A stretch of 64,000 nt of DNA from a virus. Lineage: Duplodnaviria > Heunggongvirae > Uroviricota > Caudoviricetes. Below the pieces are notes generated by a model. It was not told the DNA's origin, ran no database searches, and was given only the letters and a program-made list of their open reading frames with translations. Every line of letters begins with the position of its first letter. Positions within the stretch are counted from its first letter, which is position 1. The stretch is from IMG/VR virus record IMGVR_UViG_3300042888_001115, positions 11,067 to 75,066 of that record; one strand, 5' to 3'. This document shows, piece after piece, positions 4,916-63,799 of this stretch. A program made the translations under genes and the position numbers.

Positions 4916-4925
4916 TATAACTCAG

Positions 4926-7081: not shown

Positions 7082-7085
7082 TTAC

Positions 7086-9704: not shown

Positions 9705-9706
9705 AT

Positions 9707-20580: not shown

Positions 20581-20931
20581 ATTTATTTAATCTACCAAAT
20601 TATATTGAATCTTTTTGTGTGGGGTATGTGTGTAAAAATAGTCTCTAAAAAATTTTGCGGTCCGACTGAATGGATGGATAAGGTCTAAATGCCGTTGTGA
20701 TACCGATTGATTACACTCACACCTCTTTGTAACCCTTATGTGTGTTGAATTGTGGGGGTAAGTGGGTATAAGTGGGAAATTATTGTACGATGGACCTTAT
20801 TATTGCTCTATTCGGTATCAATATACGAATTTAGGGATATGATACACTATTCCATTTGATTTGATACGGTCTAATTAATAATACTTTCATTAAATAAAAT
20901 CTAATTTAAGTTAGATTTTTGGGAATATTAT

Positions 20932-24337: not shown

Positions 24338-24385
24338 TGTATATATAGTTTTTACTATCAAAAAATTTAGGTAACGACACTTTTT

Positions 24386-24404
24386 CCCCCAACCCCCGCC
24401 CGCG
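24386..24404 (-). repeat. G/C-rich island (gene-sense CGCGGGCGGGGGTTGGGGGG)
   Basis: Followed in gene-sense by GTCGTTACCTAAATTTTTTGATAGT, as in the copy at 26557. Confidence 0.4.
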
Positions 24405-25311: not shown

Positions 25312-25437
25312 TTATTTCTTAGATTTTGATGCTTTAATCAATTTTGATGCTTTAATCAATAGTATTGTTATCCATACTACTGCCGTCAATACACATGCTA
25401 TTTCTACTATCAATGATATCGTTGCTATTGTTTTCAT
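25312..25437 (-). CDS. small single-TM peptide with LIKASK x2 repeat
   Basis: 41-aa ORF; ATG overlaps the uvdE stop (ATGA); repeat encoded by a 17-nt tandem duplication at 25322-25355. Confidence 0.3.
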   Translation of the reverse strand: MKTIATISLIVEIACVLTAVVWITILLIKASKLIKASKSKK

Positions 25438-26306: not shown

Positions 26307-26476
26307 ACTTTCTTTGTTTTTCGTTTGAGTAATTCAGTTTCTATTTTAGATATTCTACCTTCCATAGAATGTATTTTAAATCTATGTATGAAATTACCTA
26401 ATATTGTTTTAGGTATTCTAGCTTGCTCTGCAATCAATGATGCTTTCATTGCTCTTAGAATTTTTCTTAGTGCCAT
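26303..26476 (-). CDS. small protein, possibly HTH (start trimmed to MALRKIL)
   Basis: The track's N-terminal 17 aa (..IFRIFKYK..) are encoded by the promoter motif; real ATG lies 12 nt after the motif. Confidence 0.35.
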   Translation of the reverse strand: MALRKILRAMKASLIAEQARIPKTILGNFIHRFKIHSMEGRISKIETELLKRKTKKV

Positions 26477-26496
26477 ACTATGAATTAGTTTATACT

Positions 26497-26509
26497 TAAA
26501 GATACGAAA
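26497..26509 (-). promoter_or_regulatory. promoter -7-like motif TTTCGTATCTTTAAGTATAAAC
   Basis: 12 nt upstream of the trimmed ATG. Confidence 0.4.
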
Positions 26510-26556
26510 TATATATGAAACTATCAAAAAAAAATTAGGTTAAACGACCTTCGCTC

Positions 26557-26577
26557 AACCCCCGCCCCTTCCCCGCT
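26557..26577 (-). repeat. G/C-rich island (gene-sense GCGGGGAAGGGGCGGGGGTTG)
   Basis: Second copy of the GGGGGTTG...GTCGTT.ACCTAA.TTTTTTGATAGT element. Confidence 0.4.
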
Positions 26578-42187: not shown

Positions 42188-43327
42188 TTATTCGTATTCG
42201 TTTCTGTCAATATTAATTACATATGGAAAACGGGGTATACCATCAGGTGTTAAATTAAAATACTTAATCGTTGCTTGCTTACCGATTAGTTTCTTTTTAC
42301 TCTTTAACATCTCAGCCGTTTCATCCCAAGTTCCTTTTACATTTGATTTGAAAGGTTTACCATCAATCGTTTCAAATACCATATAACCAGCAGTTCCAGT
42401 TCTATTACCTTCACCCTCTACGATATCTAAAATAGTATATTCATCATCAACAAACGATTTATGTTTTAATAAGTTCTTACTTCGTTTGTTTTCATACTTA
42501 CCATTCGTTCTTAACATCTGACCTTCGTAACCTTTCTCTACATACCCACCATATAATTCCATAACTTCATCTTCATTATCAACTTTATATGTTTGTACTA
42601 TTCTACAATACTTACCTACTTGTGAAAATGTTTCAAATAGTATTCCTAAATCATACATTCTTTTTACAAAGTTATTATCTGAACTAGGTAAATCGTATAT
42701 GTGATACTCTATACTTTTTTCACTTTCAATTAAATCCTCTTTAGTTGGTTTTGTTTTTTTAACCAAAGATACAATCTTATTGAAATCATTAGCGAACTTA
42801 TCGGCATATAACTCACCATCTAATATCAAATCAGGATTCATTACAAATACATGCCATAAGCTATACATGATATGTTGCGCTGAAAGAATAGGTTTACCAT
42901 TTCTGCTAAACATACCATCTTTTGTCACTATACAACGAATACCATCTAACTTAGCTTGCGAATAAATTGGATATGTAACCTTATCTTTACTATCTTCCCA
43001 TTTAGCGGCTAACATTGGTTCAAAGTATTGTGTTTTGTTTATGTGTTTGATATTCTCAAAGTAACCACTCTCTAACTTCTTTGTTCGTTTAGCTACCGCC
43101 TCTGCCATCGTTTGTTCTTTATCCGTAGTTTCATTTGCTCTACCAATATTCTTACCATAACAAATTGTCCACTCATTCGTAGTAATAGCACCGCCAACTT
43201 GTCCACTATGGGTTCGGTATTTATTACCTACTACTTCAATTGTCCATTCTTGCGTTGCACCGGTCTTTGTTTTTTTGTAAATAGTTTCTAATTTCATATT
43301 ATAAATTTTTGTTATATTAGGAGTCAT
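42188..43327 (-). CDS. ATP-dependent DNA ligase (T7-type minimal ligase)
   Basis: EPMLAAKW...QAKLDGIRC (motif I KxDGxR), OB-fold C-terminal region, 379 aa. The first 11 codons (MTPNITKIYNM) lie in the triplicated leader, so an alternative start at 43294 (MKLETIY) is possible. Confidence 0.85.
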   Translation of the reverse strand: MTPNITKIYNMKLETIYKKTKTGATQEWTIEVVGNKYRTHSGQVGGAITTNEWTICYGKNIGRANETTDKEQTMAEAVAKRTKKLESGYFENIKHINKTQYFEPMLAAKWEDSKDKVTYPIYSQAKLDGIRCIVTKDGMFSRNGKPILSAQHIMYSLWHVFVMNPDLILDGELYADKFANDFNKIVSLVKKTKPTKEDLIESEKSIEYHIYDLPSSDNNFVKRMYDLGILFETFSQVGKYCRIVQTYKVDNEDEVMELYGGYVEKGYEGQMLRTNGKYENKRSKNLLKHKSFVDDEYTILDIVEGEGNRTGTAGYMVFETIDGKPFKSNVKGTWDETAEMLKSKKKLIGKQATIKYFNLTPDGIPRFPYVINIDRNEYE

Positions 43328-43344
43328 TCTCTCGACTCAATACA

Positions 43345-43355
43345 TAAAGATACGA
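43345..43355 (-). promoter_or_regulatory. promoter -7-like motif GTCGTATCTTTATGTATTG
   Basis: Inside copy A, about 28 nt upstream of the first ATG. Confidence 0.4.
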
Positions 43356-43410
43356 CTTTATATTGGATTGGCAATGCCCTAAGTGAACTAATTTTGAAAG
43401 TTTTTATTGG

Positions 43411-43426
43411 GAATCAACGAGTTACG
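43411..43426 (-). promoter_or_regulatory. upstream element ATCAACGAGTTACG (UAS-class motif)
   Basis: Member of the ATCAAYKRGTTASG family, about 60 nt upstream of the -7 motif. Confidence 0.4.
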
Positions 43427-43472
43427 CCAATATAACCCTAACATATTAGGTATTTTTAATATATGATACCTA

Positions 43473-52185: not shown

Positions 52186-52233
52186 ATTATAAATTTTTGT
52201 TATATAAGGACTCATTCTCTCGACTCAATACAT

Positions 52234-52244
52234 AAAGGTACGAC
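52234..52244 (-). promoter_or_regulatory. promoter -7-like motif GTCGTACCTTTATGTATTG
   Basis: Inside copy B. Confidence 0.35.
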
Positions 52245-52308
52245 TTTATATTGGACTTTGAACAGTCAAAGGTAACTATTTTTAGGTTTTTCAAAGATTT
52301 TTGACTGA

Positions 52309-52324
52309 CTATCAATGAGTTACA
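52309..52324 (-). promoter_or_regulatory. upstream element ATCAATGAGTTACA (UAS-class motif)
   Basis: Family ATCAAYKRGTTASG. Confidence 0.35.
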
Positions 52325-52399
52325 TATATGATTTTTTTATATATGGGTAAAAAGGTGTAGACATAGATAACCCATTGAGAATCAATAAGTTATAACTCT

Positions 52400-52419
52400 T
52401 TGATAATCAATGGGTTAGG
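52400..52419 (-). promoter_or_regulatory. conserved 20-mer TTGATAATCAATGGGTTAGG with upstream imperfect inverted partner (52368-52389)
   Basis: One of three near-identical 20-mers; palindromic TTGATAATCAA core. Confidence 0.45.
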
Positions 52420-52475
52420 AATTTGAGTTATTATATTACATTTTTATATAATATCAACCCTTATTTTATGTATTA

Positions 52476-52880
52476 TTACCAGGAAATTTCCCAATCTTTA
52501 AACTCTGCCGCTAAACAATCTATTTTATAATCCATTCTGCCACCAACAACTTCCTGAATTTTATTTTTTGCTACATTTCTGATACCATTAATACCATGTG
52601 TTAATTCTAAATTGTTTCCCTCTTTAATTCCTTTACGATAGTTCGATTCATTCTGCCAAATATGTGCATTGATTTGTGATAATACTACAATTGCTCTAAT
52701 CGTTTCGCCACTAATTGGCTTGTCACTATTATCTAAACACAATTGAATATCATGTACGATATCCGCAATTTCCTGTGCGTATTCTGCTTTGTGTTCAGGA
52801 ATCTTTACTTCTTTTAATTGAGCTATACTCAATCTGTCAATTAACTCCGCTAATGTTGGGAGATATTTTCTTTCACTCAT
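52476..52880 (-). CDS. hypothetical protein
   Basis: 134-aa ORF. Confidence 0.45.
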   Translation of the reverse strand: MSERKYLPTLAELIDRLSIAQLKEVKIPEHKAEYAQEIADIVHDIQLCLDNSDKPISGETIRAIVVLSQINAHIWQNESNYRKGIKEGNNLELTHGINGIRNVAKNKIQEVVGGRMDYKIDCLAAEFKDWEISW

Positions 52881-53974
52881 AGTTGTATGTTTTTTAAATA
52901 ACGAATTAATGTATTTCTATTGTGTTCAAATTCTTCAAAGTTATCATAATAAATACTATGTAAATCGGAGTATGATAAACTAGCAAATTCATTTACCTTA
53001 GTATTAAATGCATCTAAATCATATCCCATATTATTACAATGATACAAAGGACATTCAAATGAAAATCCAAAGTATTTACTAAATTGTTCCAATGTATTTT
53101 CAGGTCCCCAAAAACTAAATGGATTCATAAACATTAATGGTTTATAAATCTTTTCTGAATAGTGTAGTATATTACTTCTATCTGCGTATGGATGTACGGG
53201 TGTACGTGAACTAAATCCTTCCGTTATAATTTCAAAGTAAGTATTATGAAAATGCGTTACGTTTGTATTTTGTGGTTGAAAGTAAACAGGATTTGCTATA
53301 TGTTTAATATCATTTTCAAATACATAATTTGCATTGTTATCACCATCTAATTCTATTGGTAATACTTTATATGCATCTGATTTTAAAATATATTCCATAT
53401 CCGAATTACTCACATCATACATTCTACTATCAAACTTGTCATTAGCCAATGTCCAATTAAAACTAACTAAACCATCATCTAAATTATTATTGTTGTATAA
53501 TGATTCAAATATTTTGAACCTTTCAGTTCTCATATGATGATTAAGAAACAAATATTTCTTTAATCGTTTTTTAGTTCTTAATACATCCCATTGTATAAAT
53601 TTGTTTGATTGTGTAAACCCATCTTTTGTAAAGTTGTCTGCTAATTGTAAGGCGTGTAATGGAAAAAATACATGCGATTTGAATTGACAATTGAGTATGT
53701 TTACCGTCAGTATTTTAAGATTAAACCCACTCAACTCTGCTTCTAATCGTTTATAGGTATTTACATCAATATAACTTTCAGTAGAAATAAAATCTAAATA
53801 TACGTTTTCAATGTTTTGTTTTTTTATGAATAATCCAATACGTTCAATTTTAGGACGAGATGAATCTTCCATTATACTTAATACTAAACATTCTTTTGTA
53901 GGTTTTATATAACCACACGGTAAATGGTCATATTCTACAAACTCTTTATTCTCATATCTAAAATATTTATTCAA
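52877..53974 (-). CDS. large paralogous family A protein (possible glycosyltransferase)
   Basis: C-terminal YKPLMFMNPFSFWGPENTLEQFSKYFGF block. Confidence 0.4.
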   Translation of the reverse strand: MNKYFRYENKEFVEYDHLPCGYIKPTKECLVLSIMEDSSRPKIERIGLFIKKQNIENVYLDFISTESYIDVNTYKRLEAELSGFNLKILTVNILNCQFKSHVFFPLHALQLADNFTKDGFTQSNKFIQWDVLRTKKRLKKYLFLNHHMRTERFKIFESLYNNNNLDDGLVSFNWTLANDKFDSRMYDVSNSDMEYILKSDAYKVLPIELDGDNNANYVFENDIKHIANPVYFQPQNTNVTHFHNTYFEIITEGFSSRTPVHPYADRSNILHYSEKIYKPLMFMNPFSFWGPENTLEQFSKYFGFSFECPLYHCNNMGYDLDAFNTKVNEFASLSYSDLHSIYYDNFEEFEHNRNTLIRYLKNIQL

Positions 53975-55223
53975 CTGAAAACAATTTTATAGTATTAATC
54001 TTTTCTTTCTCTATTAGTTTAACTAAAACATGATAGTTGTACTCACAATTAAAATAAGTTTCATCAACCAGTTCTCTTAACGTTTCTATATCCATACTTG
54101 CTAATTCATCCAATATCTTTAAAAATTTAGCAAACCTTCTTTTATAAAATATAGCCTTTGCGTTATCCTCATGTCTAACTTCATCCATTATCTCATAAAA
54201 TTCGGTAGTATCATCTAATATACTTGCATCATATAATTGTGGGAACAACTTAAATCCATATTCCTCTAATCCTTTATAGATACCCGCACTACCAAATATC
54301 AAAAATGGTTTCTTACATACGATAGGTCTAAATGCCTTCTCAGTTAGTGAACAAAAATCAACCGGGTCACTTAGCGTTTCTATTACTAAATCAATTAATG
54401 CGTTATTATTCTTTTCAAAGTTTACCCACTTACAATTGTAATAGTGTCCACCTTCTAATTCATTTTGAAATACTCTAACAGGAAATTGAAATGAATCATC
54501 TATATCATCCAATAGTTTTTTATTACCATCTCGTTCTCTCTCTGAATATGTGATATACTTTTTACCATCATCCCAATGTCTAAAAAAGAAAGTTGCTTCA
54601 CACTTACTTAACATCCTATTATCTAATAAGTGTTTGTATAAGTGCATTCTTGCTTCTCTCGGTTGGTTGTTAGTAGTATAGAAATGTTTTTGTGCATTTG
54701 AACTATTAACTACAATATTTTCTGCTTCTATTTTCTCTATATTGTTTTCCAAAAAGTAAGGTAAACATCCTAAGTTATAGATTACATTTATATTTTCCCA
54801 ATCATGCGACCAATTCTTTGATGCGATACTAATAAATACCTTATCAATTTGGTCACCGAAAAAACGATTAAGGTGAAATACCAATTCAGGTACAGGACCA
54901 CCGACAGTAAGAAAGTCCATATCCTCACCATAGAATATGAACTTCTTTATAACACCAGTCCTAAGTTTGTCTAAAATTTCTTTTGATTTCTCTAATTGTA
55001 AGAAACCAGGTATTGCAGATGAAATTGATTCAGTATAGAACATACAATAAACTTCATCATCCTCTACAAATTTTATATCACCATACTTTTGTACGCTGAA
55101 TATAAATTGTTTCATATGTCCTTGTCTAATATAATTGTTTTGACCTTCCTCTGAATAGAAGTCTAAATCAATAACACCCCAATTGGATTTATATTCTGTA
55201 AACTTAATTTTAATCTCTTGCAT
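53967..55223 (-). CDS. large paralogous family A protein (possible glycosyltransferase)
   Basis: CKKPFLIFGSAGIYKGLEEYGFKLFPQLYD block. Confidence 0.4.
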   Translation of the reverse strand: MQEIKIKFTEYKSNWGVIDLDFYSEEGQNNYIRQGHMKQFIFSVQKYGDIKFVEDDEVYCMFYTESISSAIPGFLQLEKSKEILDKLRTGVIKKFIFYGEDMDFLTVGGPVPELVFHLNRFFGDQIDKVFISIASKNWSHDWENINVIYNLGCLPYFLENNIEKIEAENIVVNSSNAQKHFYTTNNQPREARMHLYKHLLDNRMLSKCEATFFFRHWDDGKKYITYSERERDGNKKLLDDIDDSFQFPVRVFQNELEGGHYYNCKWVNFEKNNNALIDLVIETLSDPVDFCSLTEKAFRPIVCKKPFLIFGSAGIYKGLEEYGFKLFPQLYDASILDDTTEFYEIMDEVRHEDNAKAIFYKRRFAKFLKILDELASMDIETLRELVDETYFNCEYNYHVLVKLIEKEKINTIKLFSVE

Positions 55224-55626
55224 ATGTCTTATAATAACTATATAAACTCATTAAATCTCCCCCACATTTTTCAACCGCTTCATCCCAAATATTTAAACCA
55301 AAGACGGTTTTAAAATCATGTTCTAATTTATAAAGTATCTTTTGTTCGTCTTTATGTGCTTCTAATTCTAACTTAATGGCTTTTAATCGTTTCATTCTAC
55401 TTGCTTCTAATGCCGATTCAACACGATTCTTTTCATCAGTACCACCATAGTTGTCATATGTTTGTTGATATGCCTGTTTTGCGGTTGCTCGCATTTTATC
55501 AGCTTCACCAAACATGAACGAATAATCATAATCACCATTTTGTATCTTATCAAATAAAGGTGCTCTATCTGAAAGGGGTTTCTTTCTTTTACCTGTTGCC
55601 CACCATCTGAATTTGTTGTATGCCAT
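55210..55626 (-). CDS. hypothetical protein
   Basis: 138-aa ORF. Confidence 0.45.
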   Translation of the reverse strand: MAYNKFRWWATGKRKKPLSDRAPLFDKIQNGDYDYSFMFGEADKMRATAKQAYQQTYDNYGGTDEKNRVESALEASRMKRLKAIKLELEAHKDEQKILYKLEHDFKTVFGLNIWDEAVEKCGGDLMSLYSYYKTYARD

Positions 55627-55628
55627 AA

Positions 55629-55922
55629 CTAACCATTTAATTGAATATTCATAACTTGTCTTCGTAAGTAGATTTCGTTTAATTTATGTGTAACCTCTGA
55701 TACTATTCTTTCGTCCTTTATAACTTCTGCTACCGCACTTTCAACATCAGCGGTACAAAAACGAGTATCATAGTAGGCATTTATCCTATCCATTGTTTCC
55801 TCTACTTTAGCTTCCCAATATTGCTCGGTTAATTTTGATTCAGATGCAAATTGTTCATATAAATAATCTTCATCACCACTTTCATTAATTGGTGTGTTTG
55901 TTGGTAGTTGTTGTTTGCTCAT
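55629..55922 (-). CDS. hypothetical protein
   Basis: 97-aa ORF. Confidence 0.4.
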   Translation of the reverse strand: MSKQQLPTNTPINESGDEDYLYEQFASESKLTEQYWEAKVEETMDRINAYYDTRFCTADVESAVAEVIKDERIVSEVTHKLNEIYLRRQVMNIQLNG

Positions 55923-56082
55923 AATATTCTTTTAATGTTTTTTCTATAAAGTGTATTCCCTCACTATCACCACTATATGCATCATATGAGGTGTAAAGAC
56001 GGACAAACTTTTCAATTCCATATGTTTCTAATTCATATATAACGGAACTAAGGTTTGATATTTGACAATGATTAAATCCCAT
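55885..56082 (-). CDS. hypothetical protein
   Basis: 65-aa ORF. Confidence 0.35.
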   Translation of the reverse strand: MGFNHCQISNLSSVIYELETYGIEKFVRLYTSYDAYSGDSEGIHFIEKTLKEYYEQTTTTNKHTN

Positions 56083-56407
56083 CTTTTAATCCTCTCTTTT
56101 TTATAAGTATATCCATAGATGCACTTTCGTTTTGTTTTATAATCGGTTTTAAACTATCATACAACCCATCCTTAAACACTTCATCCGTTCCCTTATCACT
56201 ATTTGCTACTGCCGTAGAAATGTGTGCAAATCGTTTTAATTTGTACGGAGAGAGTGGTACAATATGTTGTTTGAGACTTAGGGCTTTAGCATCCAGGTAC
56301 TCGAATAATTCCGAGTCGGTCATTTGTTTTAGTTCCTCGTCTGTCTTATTAAATTCCATACTCAAATATACTAATAAATAATGAATTAAAAAAATAAAGG
56401 GGAACAT
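56072..56407 (-). CDS. hypothetical protein with N-terminal TM
   Basis: 111-aa ORF. Confidence 0.4.
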   Translation of the reverse strand: MFPFIFLIHYLLVYLSMEFNKTDEELKQMTDSELFEYLDAKALSLKQHIVPLSPYKLKRFAHISTAVANSDKGTDEVFKDGLYDSLKPIIKQNESASMDILIKKRGLKDGI

Positions 56408-56418
56408 TTCTGCTCCCC
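56388..56418 (-). terminator. intrinsic terminator
   Basis: Gene-sense GGGGAGCAGAAATGTTCCCC hairpin + TTTATTTTTTT after the 56430 stop. Confidence 0.45.
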
Positions 56419-56429
56419 GTTTGTATGTT

Positions 56430-58277
56430 TTAAACTACATTTTGTGTAGATATATTCATTAATGGATTTTCCAAATCTAAATTATCAATTGTGTTAGTAC
56501 CACGTTTTGATTTAGATTTAATATGTCCTTTATGTTTAGTATTCCCAAATAATTCTGCTTTTCTCTTTGAAGCATTTCCAAATGATGGTAAAAACGATGT
56601 GTATGAAGGCATAGTAGTTGCATCAGTCCAATTAATGTCACTAAAGTAACCATCCTCTTGCTTATTTTCCATTTTAGAAATAAAAGCACTTTTCAAATTT
56701 TCATTAACTACATTAACAATTGTATCGTGTTTATCATGCCATCCGGTTACAAAACTATCTCCAATATGTTTGCGAAATGCTTTGTCTATATTATTCTTAT
56801 CATATTGTGATTCCTTACATTTTGTTTCAATTGATTTGAAGCTTTTCAAAAAGTTAGAATCATCCATTTCTTCTTTAGAGGTAAAATATCTTCGACTAGA
56901 TTGGTTTACCTTATCAAGTGTTTGTTTACCATCTTCTGTTTCCCAATAATATGTATTGATTGGATGCATTGGATTGTTATAATACTCACATATTGCAATA
57001 AAATCAGTAATAACGTTTTCTAAATTACTTAATTCTATCTTTGGTTTCCATATTCTACCAGACGAATCCATATATTGAAATACTTTAGTTATATAGTTAT
57101 ATAAAAATATAGATAAAATAAACATTGATGGTTTTGATATTATCGCAGTTAACGCTTCATTATTATTTTCGTTACTTCCAATTTTGTTAAAAACTTTAGC
57201 AACTTTTAATAAATCTGATTTCATACTCTTTAAATCCGATTCGCTTATTTCACAATCTTTGCTTAAGATAGATGATAACATTTGTTGTTCATTCTTAAAT
57301 CCAAATCTTTGTAATTGCTTTATATCATAATAACATGTATCTGCTATAACTGATATGAGATATTCAAATCCACCATCTTTCTTTTGAAACTTACCTGTTC
57401 CAAATTTTACTGGATTTGCTTTACCATATAACATCTCCAATATCCCACCTACTGAACTATCAGTTGTTTCTGATGCAATATTATCTCTAACAAAAATTGT
57501 AAATGGATTCTTTGTTAACTTAAACTTATGTAGAAATTCTGACCAACTAGTGGATGAATTACTATACCATATAAATTTGGCTATATCTTCAAATGAATCT
57601 GCTTCAGTAATTTCAATTATATTGATAGGGCATTCACTTAAATATTTTAAATATATATTCGTTGTTTCTTCAACTGAAAGTCCTTTGAATTCTTTAATTT
57701 GTTTTGAAGGATTTGTTGAGGTACATTTTGTTTCTAAATCTTTTAAAGATTCAAATTTTATTTCCTTATCATTAACTATAAATGGTGCAAATTGAATTTC
57801 AGCATTTGTTTTTGGTAATTTACCAGTCAAATCACTTATATATTGTGTCATTCTATGTTGCCCATTAACTGAAAAATATTTATCTTTAAATCTCTTTTCA
57901 GAAAAATAGTTAATATCATCTTTCAAATAAGCAATAGATGTATCATATATTGCCTTTTGCGATAATTCTGCATTTAATTTTGAAATTTCTTTAGTAGCTA
58001 ATTCACTTTTCAATACTTTGATAATTGTTTTCGCTGAAATATAATATACCGGCGATGATGTACCAAATCCATTGGTAGCCGCCGTAACCATATTTTTACG
58101 AACTGCTTTCTTTAGTTCTTTAATATATCTATTGATTCTAGTTGAATTAATAAATTTATCTTTATTTTCAAATATATATCTTAAATCACTACCCAATGCT
58201 TCAACTGCAATTCTTAATGATTTTTTGATTTCTATTTTCTTTTTTCCATTTGAAATGGTAAAAATTGTTTTTAACAT
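56430..58277 (-). CDS. DGQHR-domain (DndB/DpdB-like, ParB-fold) protein
   Basis: YFSVNGQHRMTQYI (DGQHR variant) about 140 aa from the N-terminus in a 615-aa protein; preceded by a promoter motif 25 nt upstream. Confidence 0.35.
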   Translation of the reverse strand: MLKTIFTISNGKKKIEIKKSLRIAVEALGSDLRYIFENKDKFINSTRINRYIKELKKAVRKNMVTAATNGFGTSSPVYYISAKTIIKVLKSELATKEISKLNAELSQKAIYDTSIAYLKDDINYFSEKRFKDKYFSVNGQHRMTQYISDLTGKLPKTNAEIQFAPFIVNDKEIKFESLKDLETKCTSTNPSKQIKEFKGLSVEETTNIYLKYLSECPINIIEITEADSFEDIAKFIWYSNSSTSWSEFLHKFKLTKNPFTIFVRDNIASETTDSSVGGILEMLYGKANPVKFGTGKFQKKDGGFEYLISVIADTCYYDIKQLQRFGFKNEQQMLSSILSKDCEISESDLKSMKSDLLKVAKVFNKIGSNENNNEALTAIISKPSMFILSIFLYNYITKVFQYMDSSGRIWKPKIELSNLENVITDFIAICEYYNNPMHPINTYYWETEDGKQTLDKVNQSSRRYFTSKEEMDDSNFLKSFKSIETKCKESQYDKNNIDKAFRKHIGDSFVTGWHDKHDTIVNVVNENLKSAFISKMENKQEDGYFSDINWTDATTMPSYTSFLPSFGNASKRKAELFGNTKHKGHIKSKSKRGTNTIDNLDLENPLMNISTQNVV

Positions 58278-58300
58278 ACTTTTAAATTTTAGTGTTTATT

Positions 58301-58312
58301 AAATATACGAAA
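58301..58312 (-). promoter_or_regulatory. promoter -7-like motif TTTCGTATATTTAATA
   Basis: About 25 nt upstream of ATG 58277. Confidence 0.4.
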
Positions 58313-58331
58313 TATAATTGGATTTACCAAA

Positions 58332-58934
58332 TTATATATTTTGTTCTTTGTATAATTTCATATACTTGTCACTCATTTTTTTGTAGTTCATTCTGAAATT
58401 AGGGGGCATTGCTTCATAGATAGCTTTATTACTATATGGTGCGTTGCCTGGTCTACTCCATCTCTTTGAGTATCTCATCCAATTATAAAACTGAATATAT
58501 GCATTTGCTTTCTTAATGTAATCGTTAAGGTCAATTGGTAGTTTCCATTTCTTAATTAACTTTACCGAGCGTTTCTCATTATCCAATTCTAAATCTCTAC
58601 TCCATTCTATTGCGTTTTTAATGCTACGAATTTTCTTGCCACCCAACCAATCGTCTAAATGGGTCACTCCGGTCGAACCGGTTTTCCATATGTTAGTGCT
58701 CTTATCTTGCCATTGTGTTAAGTGTGCATATTCATGTGTTAATATACCTAACCAATCTTTACTTTTACCCGCTACTACTAATCTCATAGTTTCCTCACAA
58801 AAGTAACCACTACATCTTATATTACCACTCAATACTAAATATTTTACAGGTCGTATTTGGCATCTAATCCCCACTTCCTTACAATGTCCTTTCACATGAT
58901 TAATGAAAGCTCTTACGTTTTTTGTTAATGCCAT
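58332..58934 (-). CDS. SprT-like HExxH zinc-metallopeptidase domain protein
   Basis: LGILTHEYAHLTQW with upstream Cys/His-rich segment. Confidence 0.45.
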   Translation of the reverse strand: MALTKNVRAFINHVKGHCKEVGIRCQIRPVKYLVLSGNIRCSGYFCEETMRLVVAGKSKDWLGILTHEYAHLTQWQDKSTNIWKTGSTGVTHLDDWLGGKKIRSIKNAIEWSRDLELDNEKRSVKLIKKWKLPIDLNDYIKKANAYIQFYNWMRYSKRWSRPGNAPYSNKAIYEAMPPNFRMNYKKMSDKYMKLYKEQNI

Positions 58935-58954
58935 TTTGTTTTATTATTAATTTA

Positions 58955-58987
58955 AAAAATAAAGGAGGGTACAAATTGTACCCCCCT
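58955..58987 (-). terminator. intrinsic terminator
   Basis: GGGTACAAATTGTACCC 7-bp palindrome followed in gene-sense by TTTATTTTTT, after the cobS-like stop. Confidence 0.5.
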
Positions 58988-59043
58988 TAGTTATTTAGGT
59001 ATAGTCGTTATGAGTATGTATAAAACTATACCCTCATAACATA

Positions 59044-60276
59044 TTACCAAACAATAGTATCGTCATTCGCATCTTCCTCTTTCACTTCGTTGAATAACTT
59101 TTCACCTTCATTCTCATCTACTACGAATTTTTGTATAAGTTGCTTAATGTAAGTACGCTCACTATCCATACCACCATCTTGTGAATAGAACGGGAAGATT
59201 GCTACCTCAGCTGCTTCTAACAAACTGAAACCATCATACAACAAACCTGCCATCTCTACTGAAATACGAGTTGATACAGCAGTTGTCAATTTACCCGCCT
59301 CACCTTTGATTTGGTCTCTAGTGTGTGCCGCAATCTCTGCTACTGATTTCAAATTGTAATCATTCGTATCAGGATATAACATCTTTAACAATTCATATTC
59401 CTGCTCAGCATTCAATACATCTACCTCAATTGTCACGAATCTATCTAACAATGCTCTATCCATTACACGCGTTGCAGTATATTCAGAACCGATGTTTGCA
59501 GTTGCAATAAAGGTAACACCTTCTGCCACCTTAACAATTGGTGAATTTTCTTGCTCATCTAATCGTAAGTATCTTTGTGTTTGGTCTAACACTGTCATTA
59601 GGATATTAGCGGCTTCTGGATGAGCTCTACTTAATTCATCTAATAACACAACTGCGTAAGGTGTCTTAATAGCTTTAACGAATGCACTCTCACTAAAATA
59701 AGTACCACTTGCTTTGTTAAAGTGTGTGTTACCAATTAATGCCGCCCTCGGGTCTTGCGTCGCACCTAAGTTAAAGTAATGAAACGGTCTTTTCAATGCC
59801 GCAACTAATGCTTTAGCTGCCATTGTCTTACCACTACCCGCAGGTCCTGTCATCATAATATTTCGCGCTCGAACCGCTGAACGTAATAAATATTTCCACT
59901 TCAACTCGTTCATAATTAAGTTAGCAGGTTTTAACGCCATACCCTCTTTATGAATGAAATCGATAACATCTTTATGCTCCGTTGGATTTTCTACGATAGT
60001 TTCAGCGATATCCGTATTCATCGGCTTAACCAACATATCCGTATATTCTTGCATTTCTACCATACGATAGCTTTTAGCTCCGTTTTTGTTTACATGCGCA
60101 CGAATTGCTTTATTTTGTGCTGATGCTTTTTTTCGTAAAGAACTACCTACTATTGTAGAATCTGAACTACTTAATACATCACCCGCAGTATTAACTAAGT
60201 TAAAACGGGATTTAAGATTTTCTACTTTGTACACTTCATTTGTGTAACCATACTCTTGTGTTGCTTTTTTACTCAT
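59044..60276 (-). CDS. cobS: MoxR/CobS-like AAA+ ATPase
   Basis: Walker A MMTGPAGSGKTM, Walker B VVLLDELSRAHPE, followed by a MoxR-type ANILMTVLDQ segment; 410 aa. Confidence 0.7.
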   Translation of the reverse strand: MSKKATQEYGYTNEVYKVENLKSRFNLVNTAGDVLSSSDSTIVGSSLRKKASAQNKAIRAHVNKNGAKSYRMVEMQEYTDMLVKPMNTDIAETIVENPTEHKDVIDFIHKEGMALKPANLIMNELKWKYLLRSAVRARNIMMTGPAGSGKTMAAKALVAALKRPFHYFNLGATQDPRAALIGNTHFNKASGTYFSESAFVKAIKTPYAVVLLDELSRAHPEAANILMTVLDQTQRYLRLDEQENSPIVKVAEGVTFIATANIGSEYTATRVMDRALLDRFVTIEVDVLNAEQEYELLKMLYPDTNDYNLKSVAEIAAHTRDQIKGEAGKLTTAVSTRISVEMAGLLYDGFSLLEAAEVAIFPFYSQDGGMDSERTYIKQLIQKFVVDENEGEKLFNEVKEEDANDDTIVW

Positions 60277-60322
60277 AACTGAATTTTTAATGTTTATTGT
60301 TTAATTATTGTTTGATATATCA

Positions 60323-60335
60323 TAAAGATACGAAA
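60323..60335 (-). promoter_or_regulatory. promoter -7-like motif TTTCGTATCTTTATGATAT
   Basis: About 50 nt upstream of the cobS-like ATG. Confidence 0.4.
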
Positions 60336-60418
60336 TTCTGCCCACACTACCAAAACTATTTATAACCTATTGAATATCAACACATTATACACATCCATTT
60401 AGGGTAATGTATAACACA

Positions 60419-60438
60419 TTGATAATCAATTAGTTAAG
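60419..60438 (-). promoter_or_regulatory. conserved 20-mer TTGATAATCAATTAGTTAAG
   Basis: About 85 nt upstream of the promoter motif. Confidence 0.45.
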
Positions 60439-60451
60439 TTTTAGTGTGTTT

Positions 60452-62596
60452 TTACGCTTTTTTCATAAAAAGCTCATTCATTGTTTTAATGATAGGAACG
60501 ATTTGTTTAACATCAATAAAACGGCTGTCACTTCCGTACATTGTTTTAAAGTTGTCAGATGAACTACTATATGAACTGCCACCAACAAAGTAACTCATAA
60601 CTTGTATACCCATATCTTTGATTTGTCCTACCATTTTCTTAGTGTGTAACAAAGCGTTTCTACCACTATAAGAACATTGTTGATTTGAGAATGTTGGCTC
60701 ACCATCACATATGTTTAAGAAATAAGAATCCATATCTTTGTTGCTCTCTACAAAATGTTTAAGTATCGCTTGATAACATAAACCTTCAGGTGTTGTACCA
60801 TTGGCGTGTAATGCAGGAAACAATCTCTTAACTTTCTCAAACTTATCAAATCTACTATCATACGCAATACATATGTAAGGTTTATCACCCCACGTACCTC
60901 TGATAGAAACTTGTACATTTAAGTTACTTACCATTGATGCTGCTTTACAAATAGCAATTGTTACGGCTAATGTATCATCCCACACACTACCACTCATTGA
61001 ACCACTACCATCAATAGTAACGTGCAACATTACTTTCTTAAACCTATCTACTTCTTTGGTACTGAATACATTTACATAATCATATCCTAATGCTGCTACC
61101 ATTCTCTTATCAATTCTACCATTCTTTTGGCGTGGATTGATTGTTTCTCTTTCCTCACTACGAACTGCAATACGCTTACCTAAGATTGTACCCATTACGA
61201 TACCTCTTTGTAAAGTATCAGCATTCCAGTTATTCCATTTATCATTCCAAAAACTAGCGAAAGGGAACGAACTATCTTGCATCAATCCTTCGGTCATTTT
61301 CTTAGATACGATACATTGAACCGGTTGAATATATCCACCATTCTCTAATTTAGTATCACCTACGGATTGCATTTCAGTTCCACTCTCAGCCATTTGGTCT
61401 AAGGTTTCATCCTCTTTCTTAGTTAATCCTTTCTTTTTGATATTGTTATTAACGAAGTCCTTTTGCTTTTGGATTTGTTTATCCAATTGTTTCTTAGCAG
61501 TATCACTCATTAAATCTTTACCATTACCAGTTTGTGAAGCACCACTCGTAGAGTCACCTTTCTCACCCATCACAGGTGCATCACCACCACTACCACCCAT
61601 TTCATCGTTTTGTTTATCACCTGCCTCTGCTCCAGTTTCATTACCTGCTTCGTTTACATCTGCAGGGTCACCATTACCCTTACCTTTACCATCTTTACTT
61701 AAATCAACTAAGATATGTTGTAAGATAGTGTTGGTAATCTTTTCTGCTACCTCTAATGAATCGGTTGTATTTTTTAATCTACTAATATTCTTAAGGTCTA
61801 ATGTTTCGTAGATTTCTTTCAAACCTTTCAATTTGTTAAGGTCAGTATTTTGATTTGTGATATTGATAATACGGAACATATACGATTGTAATGTTTCATC
61901 CGTATATTCATCACTTATCAATCCTTTGTCAATAGTCTTATCATAGAAATACTCATCATACAATGCTCTATAATAGTCTCTATAACCTGGACAAGTATTG
62001 TAGATATATTGGTCAATCCTTCTATCCTCTACAAAGTTTACCAATGATTTAACTACATCAAATAATTGTTCTTTGTTTCGATAATGTTGTGTACCATCAA
62101 AAGAAGGGTCATTTACATCTAAACCCGCTGCTTTTGCAAAGTTATTAAACATTTCGGTTGGTGCAGAATAAGCAGGCATTAATTCAAAGTCCGTAAGAAC
62201 AATGTGTGATGCTTCGTGCAATGCCAAACCTACCGCGATATCAAACTTTTCAGGTTTAACCTCAGCTGATAATACTACCGATTTACCATCAGTATAAGAA
62301 TCACCTTTACGCGAAAACTTTACAGGAATGTTTTTGTTTGTAAGAATGTTCACAAAGTTAGCAATTGCTCTCCTATGTGCATTCAACTTAATAAGGTCAG
62401 CAGTACTGCTTTCTACCTTATTGTACTCTTTTGGTTTCCAAGTATCACCACCCCAATATGTAGTAGGTGTGTCATAGGAACTCCATTCATCAGCCCAAAA
62501 TGAACTCGCTGATTTTTTCTCTTTCTTTTTACTAGTGTACGAACCTTTAGTTAAATAATCTAAAGTACCCGTCTTAAAACTGTCATACCAACTCAT
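60452..62596 (-). CDS. cobT: CobT-like protein with C-terminal VWA domain
   Basis: VTIDGSGSMSG MIDAS (DxSxS), central acidic/Gly-rich linker, 714 aa, adjacent to the AAA+ partner. Confidence 0.6.
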   Translation of the reverse strand: MSWYDSFKTGTLDYLTKGSYTSKKKEKKSASSFWADEWSSYDTPTTYWGGDTWKPKEYNKVESSTADLIKLNAHRRAIANFVNILTNKNIPVKFSRKGDSYTDGKSVVLSAEVKPEKFDIAVGLALHEASHIVLTDFELMPAYSAPTEMFNNFAKAAGLDVNDPSFDGTQHYRNKEQLFDVVKSLVNFVEDRRIDQYIYNTCPGYRDYYRALYDEYFYDKTIDKGLISDEYTDETLQSYMFRIINITNQNTDLNKLKGLKEIYETLDLKNISRLKNTTDSLEVAEKITNTILQHILVDLSKDGKGKGNGDPADVNEAGNETGAEAGDKQNDEMGGSGGDAPVMGEKGDSTSGASQTGNGKDLMSDTAKKQLDKQIQKQKDFVNNNIKKKGLTKKEDETLDQMAESGTEMQSVGDTKLENGGYIQPVQCIVSKKMTEGLMQDSSFPFASFWNDKWNNWNADTLQRGIVMGTILGKRIAVRSEERETINPRQKNGRIDKRMVAALGYDYVNVFSTKEVDRFKKVMLHVTIDGSGSMSGSVWDDTLAVTIAICKAASMVSNLNVQVSIRGTWGDKPYICIAYDSRFDKFEKVKRLFPALHANGTTPEGLCYQAILKHFVESNKDMDSYFLNICDGEPTFSNQQCSYSGRNALLHTKKMVGQIKDMGIQVMSYFVGGSSYSSSSDNFKTMYGSDSRFIDVKQIVPIIKTMNELFMKKA

Positions 62597-62632
62597 ACTC
62601 TTTAAGTTTATATGTGAATAAATATTGTTAGA

Positions 62633-62678
62633 AGATAGTAGGGGAATCGAACCCCTACCATGTTTCCAAAACTATCTT
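62633..62678 (-). ncRNA. tRNA-like minihelix (T-arm + acceptor stem, no D or anticodon arms)
   Basis: Minus-strand AGATAGT-TT-TGGAAACATGG-T-AGGGG-TTCGATT-CCCCT-ACTATCT: canonical T-loop TTCGATT in a 5-bp GC stem, flanked by a perfect 7-bp acceptor-like stem; no full cloverleaf could be folded. Confidence 0.3.
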
Positions 62679-62915
62679 AGTTTATCTGCGAATTAAGCAG
62701 AAATCTTAGCTCTACTAGCTAATTGTTGTAATCTTTGAGAATAGTACAACGCTCTACTTGTGTAGTAAGTACGCTTTTGCTCACTACTTGTAGTGTTTGC
62801 ATTTGTTAAAGCTTCTGTCAATTGATTCGTGATAAATTCGAACTTTGATTTTAAAGTAACCATTTTGTGTTTTCCAGTTTTTTATGTGGTGGCTCCACGT
62901 TTATTAAAAAAATCT

Positions 62916-63185
62916 TTAATTGCTTTTCATACCTTTACATACCCCATATCCTTGTCTTTGTGATAATCTATATAATCGTGCAGCATCTGCAGCAGGCATA
63001 ATTTGTATTTCGTTACCCGTCTTATGATTTGCTATTGCAACCCCACCAACTTTTTCTACCGAACTACAATTGATACAATTTCGATATCCGTATTTTTCAT
63101 ATCTAAGTTGCGGCATATCGTTTTTACATTTAATACATTTAATCATTAATAACTTACCCATAATTATTATTGTTTGATGAAACAT
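62916..63185 (-). CDS. C4 zinc-finger small protein (possible DksA/TraR-type); start uncertain
   Basis: CIKCKN...CINCSS; the track's N-terminal YRIFM is encoded by the promoter motif, so the start is at 63185 or 63161. Confidence 0.4.
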   Translation of the reverse strand: MFHQTIIIMGKLLMIKCIKCKNDMPQLRYEKYGYRNCINCSSVEKVGGVAIANHKTGNEIQIMPAADAARLYRLSQRQGYGVCKGMKSN

Positions 63186-63195
63186 AAAGATACGA
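63185..63195 (-). promoter_or_regulatory. promoter -7-like motif TTATCGTATCTTTATG
   Basis: Consensus motif. Confidence 0.4.
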
Positions 63196-63293
63196 TAAAT
63201 ATCTGAAACCGCCAAACATTTTGGAAAGTATTTTGTAAGGTACTGATATTCAGTTAGTTACACATTAGCGTTTATTCTAATATAGATAAGTCA

Positions 63294-63313
63294 TTGATTA
63301 TCAATTAGTTAGG
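63294..63313 (-). promoter_or_regulatory. conserved 20-mer TTGATTATCAATTAGTTAGG
   Basis: About 100 nt upstream of the promoter motif. Confidence 0.45.
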
Positions 63314-63746
63314 TAAATTGGTGTATTTCGTTGTATCTATTCAATATAGACCTAATGTTTTCAGCACCTACCGGATTTGCTGAATGTATTAAATATGTAG
63401 GCATTGGTAAACCATTTTCACTACAATATTCAATTAACCATTTTGCACAATCATATCCCGTTTTTTCTTTGAAATCTGCTTTTAATGGGTCAGGTGGATT
63501 TTCTCTACCACCATTATCAAAATAGTAGTTTATATGTTCCTCACCTAAATCGTGGTCAAACGATACAATATTAGGGAGGCCATTAAGTGCGATTGTTCCT
63601 ATAAATTCACCATAAGACCTAACTACTTTCCATTTTAAATCTTTATACCTACTATCACCACTTTTTTTAAAGGATGCTTTAGGTTCTCTAATATCATCTA
63701 AATATAAATTGTAACTCTCTTGCATATCACGTTTCCATTTAATCAT
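63309..63746 (-). CDS. hypothetical protein
   Basis: 145-aa ORF. Confidence 0.45.
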   Translation of the reverse strand: MIKWKRDMQESYNLYLDDIREPKASFKKSGDSRYKDLKWKVVRSYGEFIGTIALNGLPNIVSFDHDLGEEHINYYFDNGGRENPPDPLKADFKEKTGYDCAKWLIEYCSENGLPMPTYLIHSANPVGAENIRSILNRYNEIHQFT

Positions 63747-63760: not shown

Positions 63761-63790
63761 AATAAAAAAGGGGATAATTTCTTATCCCCT
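63761..63790 (-). terminator. intrinsic terminator (possibly bidirectional)
   Basis: GGGGATAATTTCTTATCCCC perfect 8-bp stem flanked by an A-run on one side and a T-run on the other. Confidence 0.5.
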
Positions 63791-63799
63791 TTATATAAA

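Follow-up and report, generated by a model that had tools for sequence, protein, structure and literature searches.

Palindromic sites and their promoters

The DNA analysed here is a 64,000-nt window from an uncultured jumbo phage of Bacteroidota, about one quarter of a genome that probably exceeds 200 kb, and its genes and promoters are all carried on the minus strand. Scanning the window defines a conserved unit of 25 bp, the palindrome TAAC-N3-TTGAT-W-ATCAA-N3-GTTA with 18 specified bases, of which the 20-mers reported in a first-pass annotation (52400-52419, 60419-60438 and 63294-63313, each with 0 mismatches to the consensus proposed there, and a weaker copy at 7071, recovered with 3 mismatches) form the right-hand (3') part. 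Seven good palindromes occupy four intergenic regions, and three half-degenerate ones lie within repeated leader modules. Matches at 16 or more of the 18 positions number six against 0.01 expected, and the 20-mer consensus is matched 10 times in total against 0.36 expected from shuffles, confirming an excess across the whole window; the true palindromes are confined to its non-coding 8%. The sites follow a stop codon, at gaps of 0-60 nt, and precede Bacteroidota-type promoters, TTTGG-N19-CGTATCTTTA. Because genes and promoters share the minus strand, the sites are truly upstream of the promoters, as first described, although the further claim that every promoter has one fails, only about 6 of about 14 window promoters of this type bearing a site.

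In the 63.3-kb region the distal palindrome (63287-63311, 17/18 matches, TAACTAATTGATAATCAATGACTTA in gene orientation), the first TAA of which is the stop codon of gene 63309-63746 (cREC_REC domain, Pfam match), is centred 107 bp from the TA of the -7 box, and the proximal one (63236-63260, 14/18, TAACTAACTGAATATCAGTACCTTA) is centred 56 bp from it. The promoter (63185-63216, minus strand), of the form TTTGG-N-CGTATCTTTA by the consensus from the literature, drives a small C4 zinc-finger gene (approximately 62916-63161) and a CobT-like vWA gene (60452-62596). At 60.4 kb a distal palindrome with 18/18 matches (60412-60436, 94 bp from the -7 TA) lies 15 nt past the stop of the CobT-like gene, and the proximal palindrome (60363-60387, 16/18, 45 bp) ends 8 nt before the -33 TTTGG of the TTTGG-N19-CGTATCTTTA promoter (60323-60354, minus strand) of a CobS-like AAA+ gene (59044-60276). 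The second palindrome of each region, 49 bp away at 60.4 kb and 51 bp away at 63.3 kb, had been overlooked earlier.

The palindrome at 52393-52417 (18/18) is centred 165 bp from the -7 TA and abuts another at 52368-52392 (17/18), with a centre-to-centre distance of 25 bp; the "imperfect inverted partner" previously placed at 52368-52389 is thus real, but it is actually this second complete palindrome. Module 3 follows, with a half-degenerate promoter-proximal site (52298-52322; TAACTCATTGAT, then an A/T-rich half) centred 70 bp from the -7 TA, an extended -7 box, CGTACCTTTA (52233-52242, minus strand), and after it the conserved leader hairpin GAGTCGAGAGAATGAGTC. Module 2 has its site at 43400-43424 (TAACTCGTTGATTCCCAATAAAAAC, 60 bp) and its extended -7 box at 43345-43354, and module 1 at 19891-19915 (TAACTCGTTGATAGTCAATAAAGAA, 14/18, 60 bp) and 19836-19845, respectively. 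The shorter variants reported from these modules are real, that at 19898 with 3 mismatches; each site keeps one perfect half (GTAACTC-N-TTGAT) and has an A/T-rich tract for the other, and a 10-bp insertion in module 3 relative to modules 1 and 2 gives the 70 bp in place of 60 bp. Lastly, a single palindrome at 7064-7088 (16/18, TAAGTAATTGATAATCAATTGTTTA, centred 56 bp from the -7 TA) contributes its TAA as the stop codon of the GNAT-like gene 7086-7523 and precedes the promoter ATTGG-N-CGTATCTTTA (7013-7044, minus strand) of gene 6380-6988. Six promoter-bearing spacers, scattered over 56 kb or more, thus hold all the sites. Measured to the -7 TA, proximal sites are 45, 56 and 56 bp away, module sites 60, 60 and 70 bp, and distal sites 94-165 bp.

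Conservation and helical phasing among phages

In approximately 100 phage contigs, some related and some not, site centres lie preferentially 45, 56 and 67 bp from the -7 box, and these distances recur in many loci whose spacers are unrelated. When related loci were collapsed by clustering before counting, 22 of 58 clustered loci fell in the phase bins, where 12% would be expected (p = 4e-7). The 11-bp ladder therefore marks the site as a helically phased upstream element, and in the phage copies the phasing is tied to the downstream promoter and not to the upstream stop.

Among unique phage copies 225 of 231 are intergenic, with the next start codon typically 88-274 nt beyond. Syntenic copies persist upstream of CobS- and CobT-like genes in relatives in which the CobS-like protein is only 62-86% identical and the spacers have diverged; such persistence through substantial divergence, together with promoter phasing, argues for selection for function. 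The consensus is identical over many lineages with GC contents of 26-60%, and in related loci the presence of the motif goes along with no particular gene. Phages commonly carry the sites in pairs or triplets, and arrays of abutting 25-bp units are restricted to them, neighbours most often being spaced by exactly 25 bp (28 of 111 pairs). This spacing is tight for two proteins with footprints of about 35 bp that each make a U-turn, which counts against an IHF-like binder.

Occurrence in Bacteroidota chromosomes

Genome contigs, nearly all from Bacteroidota, gave more than 120 exact matches. The intergenic DNA of a Microscillaceae chromosome (loci with pyrH, frr, hemB and acrB) holds about 3 copies per kb, distributed equally over convergent, tandem and divergent spacers. 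With this and other Bacteroidota carrying it, the motif is not private to phages. The conserved stretch in the Microscillaceae copies is only about 35 bp, the size of an IHF footprint. The 45/56/67 phasing is absent from host chromosome copies, and the promoter role may therefore be phage-specific. In another MAG a repeated mobile element carries the motif approximately 24-48 bp in from its end; IHF sites are similarly placed at the ends of IS10 and IS1.

Resemblance to IHF sites

As judged from its sequence, the element is a real site at which a symmetric, dimeric protein binds double-stranded DNA. Spacer and flank positions are complementary at no more than chance level in 289 phage copies, a result that speaks against the cruciform proposed in the first-pass annotation, and the lack of spacer covariation together with the lack of a T-run argues for a protein site and not a hairpin or terminator. 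The symmetric element and the composite upstream-site-plus-promoter architecture of that annotation have held up, whereas a phage HTH binder, a motif private to phages and a cruciform are not supported.

We give about an even chance to the reading that a host-type, IHF/HU-like protein binds the site as a homodimer, bends the DNA there and modulates some of the promoters. In the literature the IHF consensus, WATCAANNNNTTR, consists of WATCAA followed by TTR and has its AA kink steps 9 bp apart. Either half of the palindrome reproduces WATCAANNNNTTR, reading WATCAA from the site centre and TTR four bp beyond (W-ATCAA-N4-TTR). The fit is exact and in register for each half, with W at the dyad, TTR at +10 to +12 and AA/TT steps 9 bp apart. 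The H' site of lambda attP matches 14 of the 18 specified positions, including TTGCT-T-ATCAA and G-TT, by manual count against a verified H' sequence. Parallels with E. coli extend to the roughly 35 bp conserved in host copies and to the module variants, in which a consensus half joined to an A/T-rich half resembles the usual asymmetric IHF layout. E. coli IHF is, however, a heterodimer on asymmetric sites, whereas the present palindrome matches the consensus in both halves, implying a homodimer, and in Bacteroidota and their phages the resemblance is one of sequence only. Bacteroidetes possess one to three classical HU/IHF genes, one of which encodes a host factor for CTnDOT integration; the only Bacteroidota HU with biochemistry found in the literature, P. 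gingivalis PG0121, binds DNA without discrimination. The window holds no HU/IHF gene, and none lies near sites in related loci except L095 and L191.

We know of no sequence-specific DNABII protein described in Bacteroidota and their phages. IHF-assisted promoters (Mu Pe, lambda pL, ilvPG and sigma-54 promoters) are instructive, as an upstream bending site influences initiation there in a position-dependent manner, and a bending-protein-type site upstream of the core promoter is predicted here; the phage sites differ in their strict 11-bp ladder of 45, 56 and 67 bp over many promoters and many phages, in their frequent pairs or triplets and in facing a polymerase of the Bacteroidota -33/-7 type. 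TF1 of SPO1, a homodimeric DNABII protein with preferred sites near early promoters, would be a comparable HU/IHF-family protein at phage promoters, although TF1 is phage-encoded and prefers hmU-containing DNA, and the present window has no such gene.

Alternative explanations

A possible but unlikely explanation is that a dedicated dimeric factor (HTH, winged-HTH such as MarR-like, or RHH) uses the site as its operator or activator element. Its gene would lie in the host or in the part of the phage genome beyond the window, and the factor would act as a class I-like activator or would repress a temporal class of genes from an upstream position. Palindromic symmetry, restriction to a promoter subset and strict 11-bp phasing are traits of class I activators such as CRP, whose sites (-61.5, -72.5 and -82.5) are likewise symmetric, set at helical-turn steps and placed upstream of promoters whose upstream element is weak. 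The phage-only abutting arrays would fit a phage factor that binds cooperatively, and a window of only one quarter of the genome leaves room for its gene. FabT, a MarR-family protein of streptococci, is reported on a palindrome with the same TTTGATTATCAAA core, its operator ANTTTGATTATCAAATT sharing the core palindrome TTGATTATCAA, and the core alone therefore cannot identify the class of protein; FabT sites are nevertheless few and overlap promoters of fatty-acid synthesis genes, and FabT operators lack the outer TAAC/GTTA blocks, free N3 spacers and upstream phased position. Against a dedicated factor, HTH, winged-HTH, RHH and HU/IHF domains went undetected in the 120 window ORFs, including the ORF at 26303-26527 that had been put forward as an HTH candidate, and a regulator-like gene neither recurs beside the sites nor tracks motif presence. 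The inner blocks are just 6 bp apart centre to centre (TTGAT-N1-ATCAA, compared with 5-N6-5 for CRP and TTGAT-N4-ATCAA for FNR), the geometry is thus not that of a typical HTH-dimer operator, and the whole half-site coincides with the consensus of IHF, a protein that reads it from the minor-groove side. Half-degenerate sites with a single intact half are conserved, and the motif, far from being confined to a regulon as with CRP, is ubiquitous in host intergenic DNA, filling convergent as well as divergent regions, a distribution that a specific regulator leaves unexplained.

It is improbable that the motif is instead a REP-like, selfish short palindromic repeat of Bacteroidota that has spread into phages with only incidental effects on promoters. 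It is high-copy and intergenic-only, the host copies are a short conserved core within unique flanks, and inverted doublets 44-53 bp apart recur, much as REPs and IHF-containing intergenic repeats (E. coli RIB/RIP BIMEs and Neisseria Correia elements) are short extragenic palindromes, many in some genomes and partly in inverted doublets. Density differs strongly between Bacteroidota genomes, more as in a REP-type expansion than as for sites of a universal nucleoid protein, and in host copies the spacer and flank positions are complementary modestly more often than by chance (z = 2.8-5.3). Yet this covariation is absent in phage copies, the GTAG or CGTC tag that is a hallmark of two REP super-families is missing, no longer unit surrounds the core, one consensus serves distant lineages whereas REPs are lineage-specific, and the phage copies are syntenic despite divergence and promoter-phased.

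Action at the RNA level, as a 3'-UTR hairpin of the upstream gene serving as terminator, processing site or mRNA stabiliser, is very improbable. The closeness of every window copy to the preceding stop codon would suit it, as would the distant relatives L016, L023, L025 and L028, which have a perfect hairpin with T-run and motif-like arms at that place, and for some copies the folding is more stable than in shuffled controls (z down to -3.4). The palindromes nevertheless lack the T-run, their hairpins are weak (-1.7 to -9.7 kcal/mol, whereas a genuine terminator of the window reaches -15.8), and the phage's terminators elsewhere are canonical GC-hairpins followed by a T-run. Spacers show no compensatory variation, the conserved positions form discrete blocks with free spacers between them, phase is set by the promoter and not the stop, and an Rfam search gave no match. 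A role in replication, partition or packaging (origin iterons, a parS-like centromere or pac/cos accessory sites) is scarcely credible, for although the palindromes are multiple and clustered, the phage genome is large, and lambda cos and many origins work with the help of IHF-type sites, the sites are dispersed among promoter-bearing spacers, are promoter-phased in many phages and coincide with no change in composition or skew.

A proposed role in phage transcription

For the favoured IHF/HU-like protein we infer from the sequence the identity of the binder, the bending of DNA and the direction in which transcription would change. The binder is most likely a homodimeric DNABII (IHF/HU-family) architectural protein, supplied probably by the Bacteroidota host and possibly by a phage gene outside the window, and its site would be set on a fixed helix face upstream of a subset of host-type (sigma-A, -33/-7) promoters. 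Proline-tipped arms would kink the DNA at the AA/TT steps 9 bp apart, and the resulting sharp bend, centred near -56, -67 or -78, would fold upstream DNA, or another dimer bound to it, back onto RNA polymerase, a contact that may raise or modulate initiation where the -33 element is weak. Their position directly past the stop codon of the gene before them suggests that the sites may also serve as boundary marks or insulators between transcription units.

Palindrome copies in the window

The three copies of a 20-nt sequence in which the first-pass annotation saw a candidate activator site are present exactly as it described them, and a search with that pattern at up to three mismatches returns 10 matches in the window against 0.36 expected. 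The conserved unit is longer than the 20-mer: read in gene orientation it is a 25-bp palindrome, TAAC-N3-TTGAT-W-ATCAA-N3-GTTA, with 18 specified bases, and six copies with at least 16 of these are found where a first-order Markov model predicts 0.01. The long ORFs of the window, which has a GC content of about 30%, all lie on the minus strand, and the true palindrome copies all fall within the non-coding 8%, beginning 0-60 nt past the preceding stop codon. Good copies are found at 7064-7088, as an abutting pair at 52368-52392 and 52393-52417, and as two further pairs, at 60363-60387 and 60412-60436 (centres 49 bp apart) and at 63236-63260 and 63287-63311 (centres 51 bp apart); at 7064-7088 and again at 63287-63311 the TAA of the motif doubles as the stop codon of the preceding gene.

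The shorter variant placed by the annotation inside three leader modules, which are promoter-plus-leader repeats, is also real and lies at 19891-19915, 43400-43424 and 52298-52322. One of its halves, GTAACTC-N-TTGAT, is perfect and does not vary among the three; an A/T-rich tract replaces the other. The modules themselves (19789-19935, 43328-43440 and 52216-52335, minus strand, about 120 nt each) consist of this half-site, the A/T tract, AAAGTCGTATCTTTATGTATTGAGTCGAGAGAATGACTCC and a conserved 5'-UTR hairpin, GAGTC-N8-GACTC, directly past the -7 box. A split copy at 19941-19992, in which TAAGTCATTGA is followed after about 30 nt by TCAATGACTTA, could be either a site split apart by inserted sequence or a 12-bp stem closed by a long loop.

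Promoters and helical phasing

Every site-bearing spacer contains a promoter-type element on the minus strand, TTTGG-N19/20-(CG)TATCTTTA. The published consensus for Bacteroidota sigma-A promoters is TTTG at -33 and TAnnTTTG at -7, and the 'TTTCGTATCTTTA' element conforms to it, as is appropriate for a predicted promoter of this class: its -7 box is TAnnTTTG-like, TTTG stands about 19-20 bp further upstream, and its location is intergenic, before genes. Such predicted promoters occupy about 14 spacers in the window, only 6 of which have the palindrome or its variant upstream, and start codons in the window are not preceded by a Shine-Dalgarno sequence. Downstream of the site-bearing promoters are the CobS-like AAA+ gene (59044-60276), a small zinc-finger gene together with the CobT-like vWA gene (60452-62596), a long series of small genes of which the first belongs to the GP88 family, and a putative lipoprotein gene.

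Several other non-coding elements were observed. At 20451-20931 lies a 481-nt non-coding region whose good predicted promoter (TTTGGTAGATTAAATAAATTATCGTATCTTAG, near 20577) leads into no ORF; the region is a candidate for a non-coding RNA, for which Rfam gave no credible match. At 4874-4925, ahead of the gene at 4016-4873, only a few bases separate the promoter-like sequence CGTATATTTG from a GC hairpin and T-run that come after it, AGGTAGTCACAAAGACTACCTTTTTTT, an arrangement that could yield a very short transcript or act as an attenuator before that gene. Two G-rich elements (24338-24404 and 26477-26575, minus strand), unusual in a genome of 30% GC, are situated just upstream of a promoter or start codon and share the order CGGGG.AGGGGCGGGGGTTG..., GTCGTT(T)AACCTAA, T-run, GATAG; they could form a G-quadruplex or represent a further regulatory site.

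The palindrome is found upstream of the CobS-like and CobT-like genes in relatives with 62-86% identity of the CobS-like protein, and in these relatives the spacers between sites have diverged while the palindrome positions are kept. A scan of IMG/VR for the exact pattern recovered at least 118 stretches with GC contents of 26-52%; among the IMG/VR stretches listed, 27 of 117 have any protein in common with the window. Nearly all unique phage copies are intergenic (225 of 231), mainly between co-oriented genes, and they precede the next start codon by 88-274 nt (10th-90th percentile). Measured from the centre of the promoter-proximal site to the -7 TA, the distance takes discrete values: it peaks sharply at 45, 56 and 67 bp, a few cases lie at 77-78 bp, and these peaks are seen across loci whose spacer sequences are unrelated. 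With related loci first collapsed by single linkage, 22 of 58 entries fall into four phase bins of 3 bp each, against 12% expected (p = 4e-7). The proximal sites of the window stand 45, 56 and 56 bp from the -7 TA, and the module variants 60, 60 and 70 bp, the last being that of module 3, where there is a clean 10-bp insertion between site and promoter.

A quantised distance is the signature of a protein that has to occupy a given face of the helix with respect to RNA polymerase, and for this reason the composite architecture of upstream activating site plus promoter, as first proposed, is supported. The palindrome is a symmetric, conserved and helically phased site on double-stranded DNA upstream of a subset of host-type promoters. 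The original interpretation is thus supported as regards a promoter-coupled upstream protein site, and unsupported as regards both a phage-encoded helix-turn-helix (HTH) binder and a cruciform.

The motif in bacterial chromosomes

In bacterial genomes the exact pattern occurs in at least 120 stretches. The matches listed are nearly all from Bacteroidota (Microscillaceae, Saprospiraceae, Cytophagales, Emticicia, Bernardetiaceae, Chitinophagales and Bacteroidales) and include a few isolated copies in GC-rich Verrucomicrobiota, Fibrobacterota and others. Nearly every intergenic region of the Microscillaceae MAG JALONJ01 (stretches L201-L290, for example L248 and L220) carries at least one copy, and these loci are genuine chromosome, encoding AcrB, UMP kinase, ribosome recycling factor, HemB and TsaB. 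Across 32 site-rich host loci, mostly from this MAG, 15 of 219 copies are inside ORFs, and copy density is equal, at 3.1-3.2 per kb, whether spacers are convergent, tandem or divergent. Host copies are conserved over about 35 bp (TTTTA-25-mer-T..AA), and this core is not embedded in any longer repeat. Neighbouring host copies never abut at 25 bp and prefer a spacing of 44-53 bp; in phages 25 bp is the commonest spacing. The 45/56/67-bp phasing was sought in the host copies and not found. Because the motif is common both in host chromosomes and in many unrelated phages, the binding factor appears to be of host type and not a regulator private to the phage.

Some JALONJ01 copies are paired as inverted doublets with a separation of about 46 bp; these doublets turn up at several loci and are REPIN-like. 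In the NPL-UPA2 MAG JAJOKU01, eight contigs (L198, L200, L209, L216, L219, L255, L296 and L306) share the terminal sequence ...TGTAACCCATTGATTATCAAATAGTTACAAAAAGGGTGCGTAACTCGTGT; these ends resemble a repeated mobile-element terminus, with the palindrome about 24-48 bp inside. The IHF sites near the ends of IS10 and IS1 occupy a comparable position.

A candidate binding protein

As described in the literature, an IHF site has WATCAA beginning near its centre, TTR four bp beyond, and two AA steps nine bp apart as the points of proline intercalation; the other half often carries an A-tract. Both halves of the palindrome read W-ATCAA-NNNG-TTA, and each matches the E. coli IHF consensus WATCAANNNNTTR in register, TTA falling at +10 to +12 on both sides with W at the dyad. 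The 25-mer has its TT step at 8-9 and its AA step at 17-18, 9 bp from each other and equidistant from W13, and a logo built from 92 copies is strongest at the C of ATCAA and at the TT. Lambda attP H' is the archetypal IHF site, and it agrees with the palindrome at 14 of the 18 specified positions by manual count (TTGCT-T-ATCAA-TTT-GTTG; binomial chance about 4e-6), the AA of its A-tract falling on TAAC; the H' sequence was verified as 100% identical in lambda and relatives. Since both halves fit the consensus in register and H' matches to this extent, the palindrome is, to judge by its sequence, an IHF site made symmetric, the form that a homodimeric DNABII protein would be expected to bind. 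In the module variants a consensus half is paired with an A/T-rich one, which resembles the usual asymmetric IHF layout.

On the favoured reading, a homodimeric IHF/HU-like protein would bind and bend the DNA at about -56, -67 or -78, positions that assume a transcription start some 11-12 nt downstream of the -7 TA. The bend would stimulate or modulate initiation, chiefly at weak -33 elements such as those of the three modules, and the site might in addition insulate adjacent transcription units, since the site-bearing spacers are without intrinsic terminators. Some observations count against the IHF identification. Footprints of the IHF type, about 34-35 bp including an A/T-rich arm, would overlap on the abutting 25-bp phage copies, so that such arrays are tight for proteins with a 35-bp footprint, and the one Bacteroidota HU for which biochemistry was found in the literature binds DNA non-specifically. 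A six-frame search with an HU/IHF HMM, too, matched nothing in the window and, among 317 loci, only two (L095 and L191). In favour of the identification, classical HU/IHF genes reportedly number one to three in Bacteroidetes, and one of them acts as a host factor in the integration of CTnDOT.

A further-reaching reading, held tentatively and with somewhat less than even confidence, takes the mirror-symmetric sequence of 25-35 bp as a 'perfect IHF site' recognised by a DNA-bending protein that is homodimeric, sequence-specific and as yet uncharacterised, and that would be common to Bacteroidota and perhaps to the wider FCB/PVC groups. The element would have multiplied to thousands of intergenic copies in some genomes, and many unrelated phages of Bacteroidota, those of this jumbo-phage clade among them, would have taken it over as a portable module, phased to the helix, that serves host RNA polymerase as enhancer and insulator.

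Alternative explanations

A dedicated regulator of the HTH, MarR or RHH type, encoded by phage or host, is an unlikely alternative. The 45/56/67 ladder is the helical phasing of class I activator (CRP/FNR-type) sites, and FabT, a MarR-family protein, reportedly recognises a palindrome that shares the core, which also counts against IHF. The main weaknesses of this alternative are that host intergenic DNA is saturated with the motif and that no candidate gene was found. Pfam and PHROG scans of all 120 ORFs of the window, which is part of the genome, detected no DNA-binding regulator and no HTH-type domain, with the proviso that 90 of the 120 were run as concatenated polyproteins, which may lower sensitivity and whose GS linkers gave spurious Serglycin matches. 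The small protein proposed earlier as an HTH candidate (ORF 26303-26527) has no Pfam or PHROG match, and a phage HTH binder is further disfavoured by the presence of the motif in hosts. Clustering of the genes adjoining sites over 197 phage loci yielded CobT, CobS, Mom-like, GP88-like, the small zinc-finger gene and others, and no regulator; a comparison of gene content between 12 motif-positive and 40 motif-negative CobS loci yielded no informative gene, the best being a ferredoxin in a comparison confounded by phylogeny. As to known boxes, TTGAT and ATCAA lie one base apart and not at the 5-N4-5 or 5-N6-5 half-site spacing of class I activators, so the spacing is also wrong for an FNR box. 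The Fur box, GATAATGATAATCATTATC, has only the central TGATAATCA in common with the motif, and was rejected given the ubiquity of the latter.

That the palindrome is a REP-like repeat with incidental effects is improbable. Host copies do have a modest excess of palindromic complementarity at free positions, but in 289 unique phage copies the N3 spacers and flanks have no complementarity beyond column composition (z < 1.5 at all tested pairs), a result that likewise speaks against the cruciform suggested for the inverted pair at 52368-52417. REP super-families are defined in the literature by a terminal GTAG or CGTC tag; the palindrome has neither, its flanks being Y-A before TAAC, and in phages it is phased and syntenic. 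A long MITE-like repeat in hosts was rejected on the limited extent of conservation there.

An element acting at the RNA level is very improbable. The sites fold only weakly as RNA (-1.7 to -9.7 kcal/mol) and have no T-run, covariation is absent, and Rfam matched no family in the window; the conserved blocks are separated by free spacers, which points to a site read on double-stranded DNA. Nor are the sites intrinsic terminators, having no stable GC-rich stem with U-run; genuine GC-hairpin and T-run terminators of the phage are found at 58962-58988, 56399-56418, 63767-63792 and near 32.9 kb. In four loci of more distant relatives (L016, L023, L025 and L028) a canonical terminator stands in place of the palindrome ahead of the CobS-like gene (about 9650-9720), and its stem reuses the motif arms, for example TAACTCATTGG-TTT-CCAATGAGTTA with T9, which suggests that protein sites and terminators interconvert in evolution. 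A replication or partition site is also very improbable, the copies being scattered at promoter-bearing spacers and phased to promoters.

Phage affiliation and gene content

A megablast of 12 kb against GenBank phages gave no nucleotide match, and protein matches outside IMG/VR are remote only and concern CobS-like genes from cyanophages and others. IMG/VR contains relatives, both close and distant, on contigs of up to 288 kb, and on this basis the uncultured phage is placed in a jumbo-phage clade. A family of paralogous small genes with at least 15 members is found at about 21.6-28.0 kb and 41.5-46.0 kb (minus strand); the products, about 100 aa long, start MLTIKNI../MLKIxNI... and have no Pfam match. 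This is a large lineage-specific expansion. The non-coding spacer at 62597-62692 (minus strand) contains a tRNA/tmRNA-like T-arm, GGTAGGGGTTCGATTCCCCTAC, with a weak Rfam tmRNA match (model positions 347-363, 14 bits, far below gathering) and no tRNA found by ARAGORN; it may be the remnant of a tRNA-type attachment site, or a mimic. The window also encodes a cREC_REC (cyclic-phosphate processing receiver) domain protein (63309-63746), a SET-domain protein (13294-13671), a UvdE UV endonuclease (25434-26306), an ATP-dependent DNA ligase (42188-43327) and a NifU-like protein (2307-2708). In other motif-bearing phages a Mom-family DNA-modification gene (PF25680, E = 1e-44; for example L192 6740-7540) adjoins sites in 15 viral loci and is the commonest neighbour after the CobS/CobT-like genes.

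Significance

No earlier description of the motif was found in the searchable literature. IHF-type architectural sites at phage promoters are known; what appears to be new, as far as sequence comparison goes, is that these are symmetric, phased and in Bacteroidota. The palindrome is a precisely defined cis-element with fixed geometry relative to the -33/-7 promoter. Hundreds of phage contigs carry it, some host chromosomes have it in great abundance, and a homodimeric IHF/HU protein is on offer as a concrete candidate binder. To our knowledge, almost nothing is known of transcription regulation in Bacteroidota and their phages beyond that promoter. If that candidate is confirmed, this would be the first sequence-specific site of a nucleoid or architectural protein defined for the phylum, and it would provide a marker for promoter and host prediction in uncultured phages and a ready-made part for the tuning of expression in Bacteroidota.
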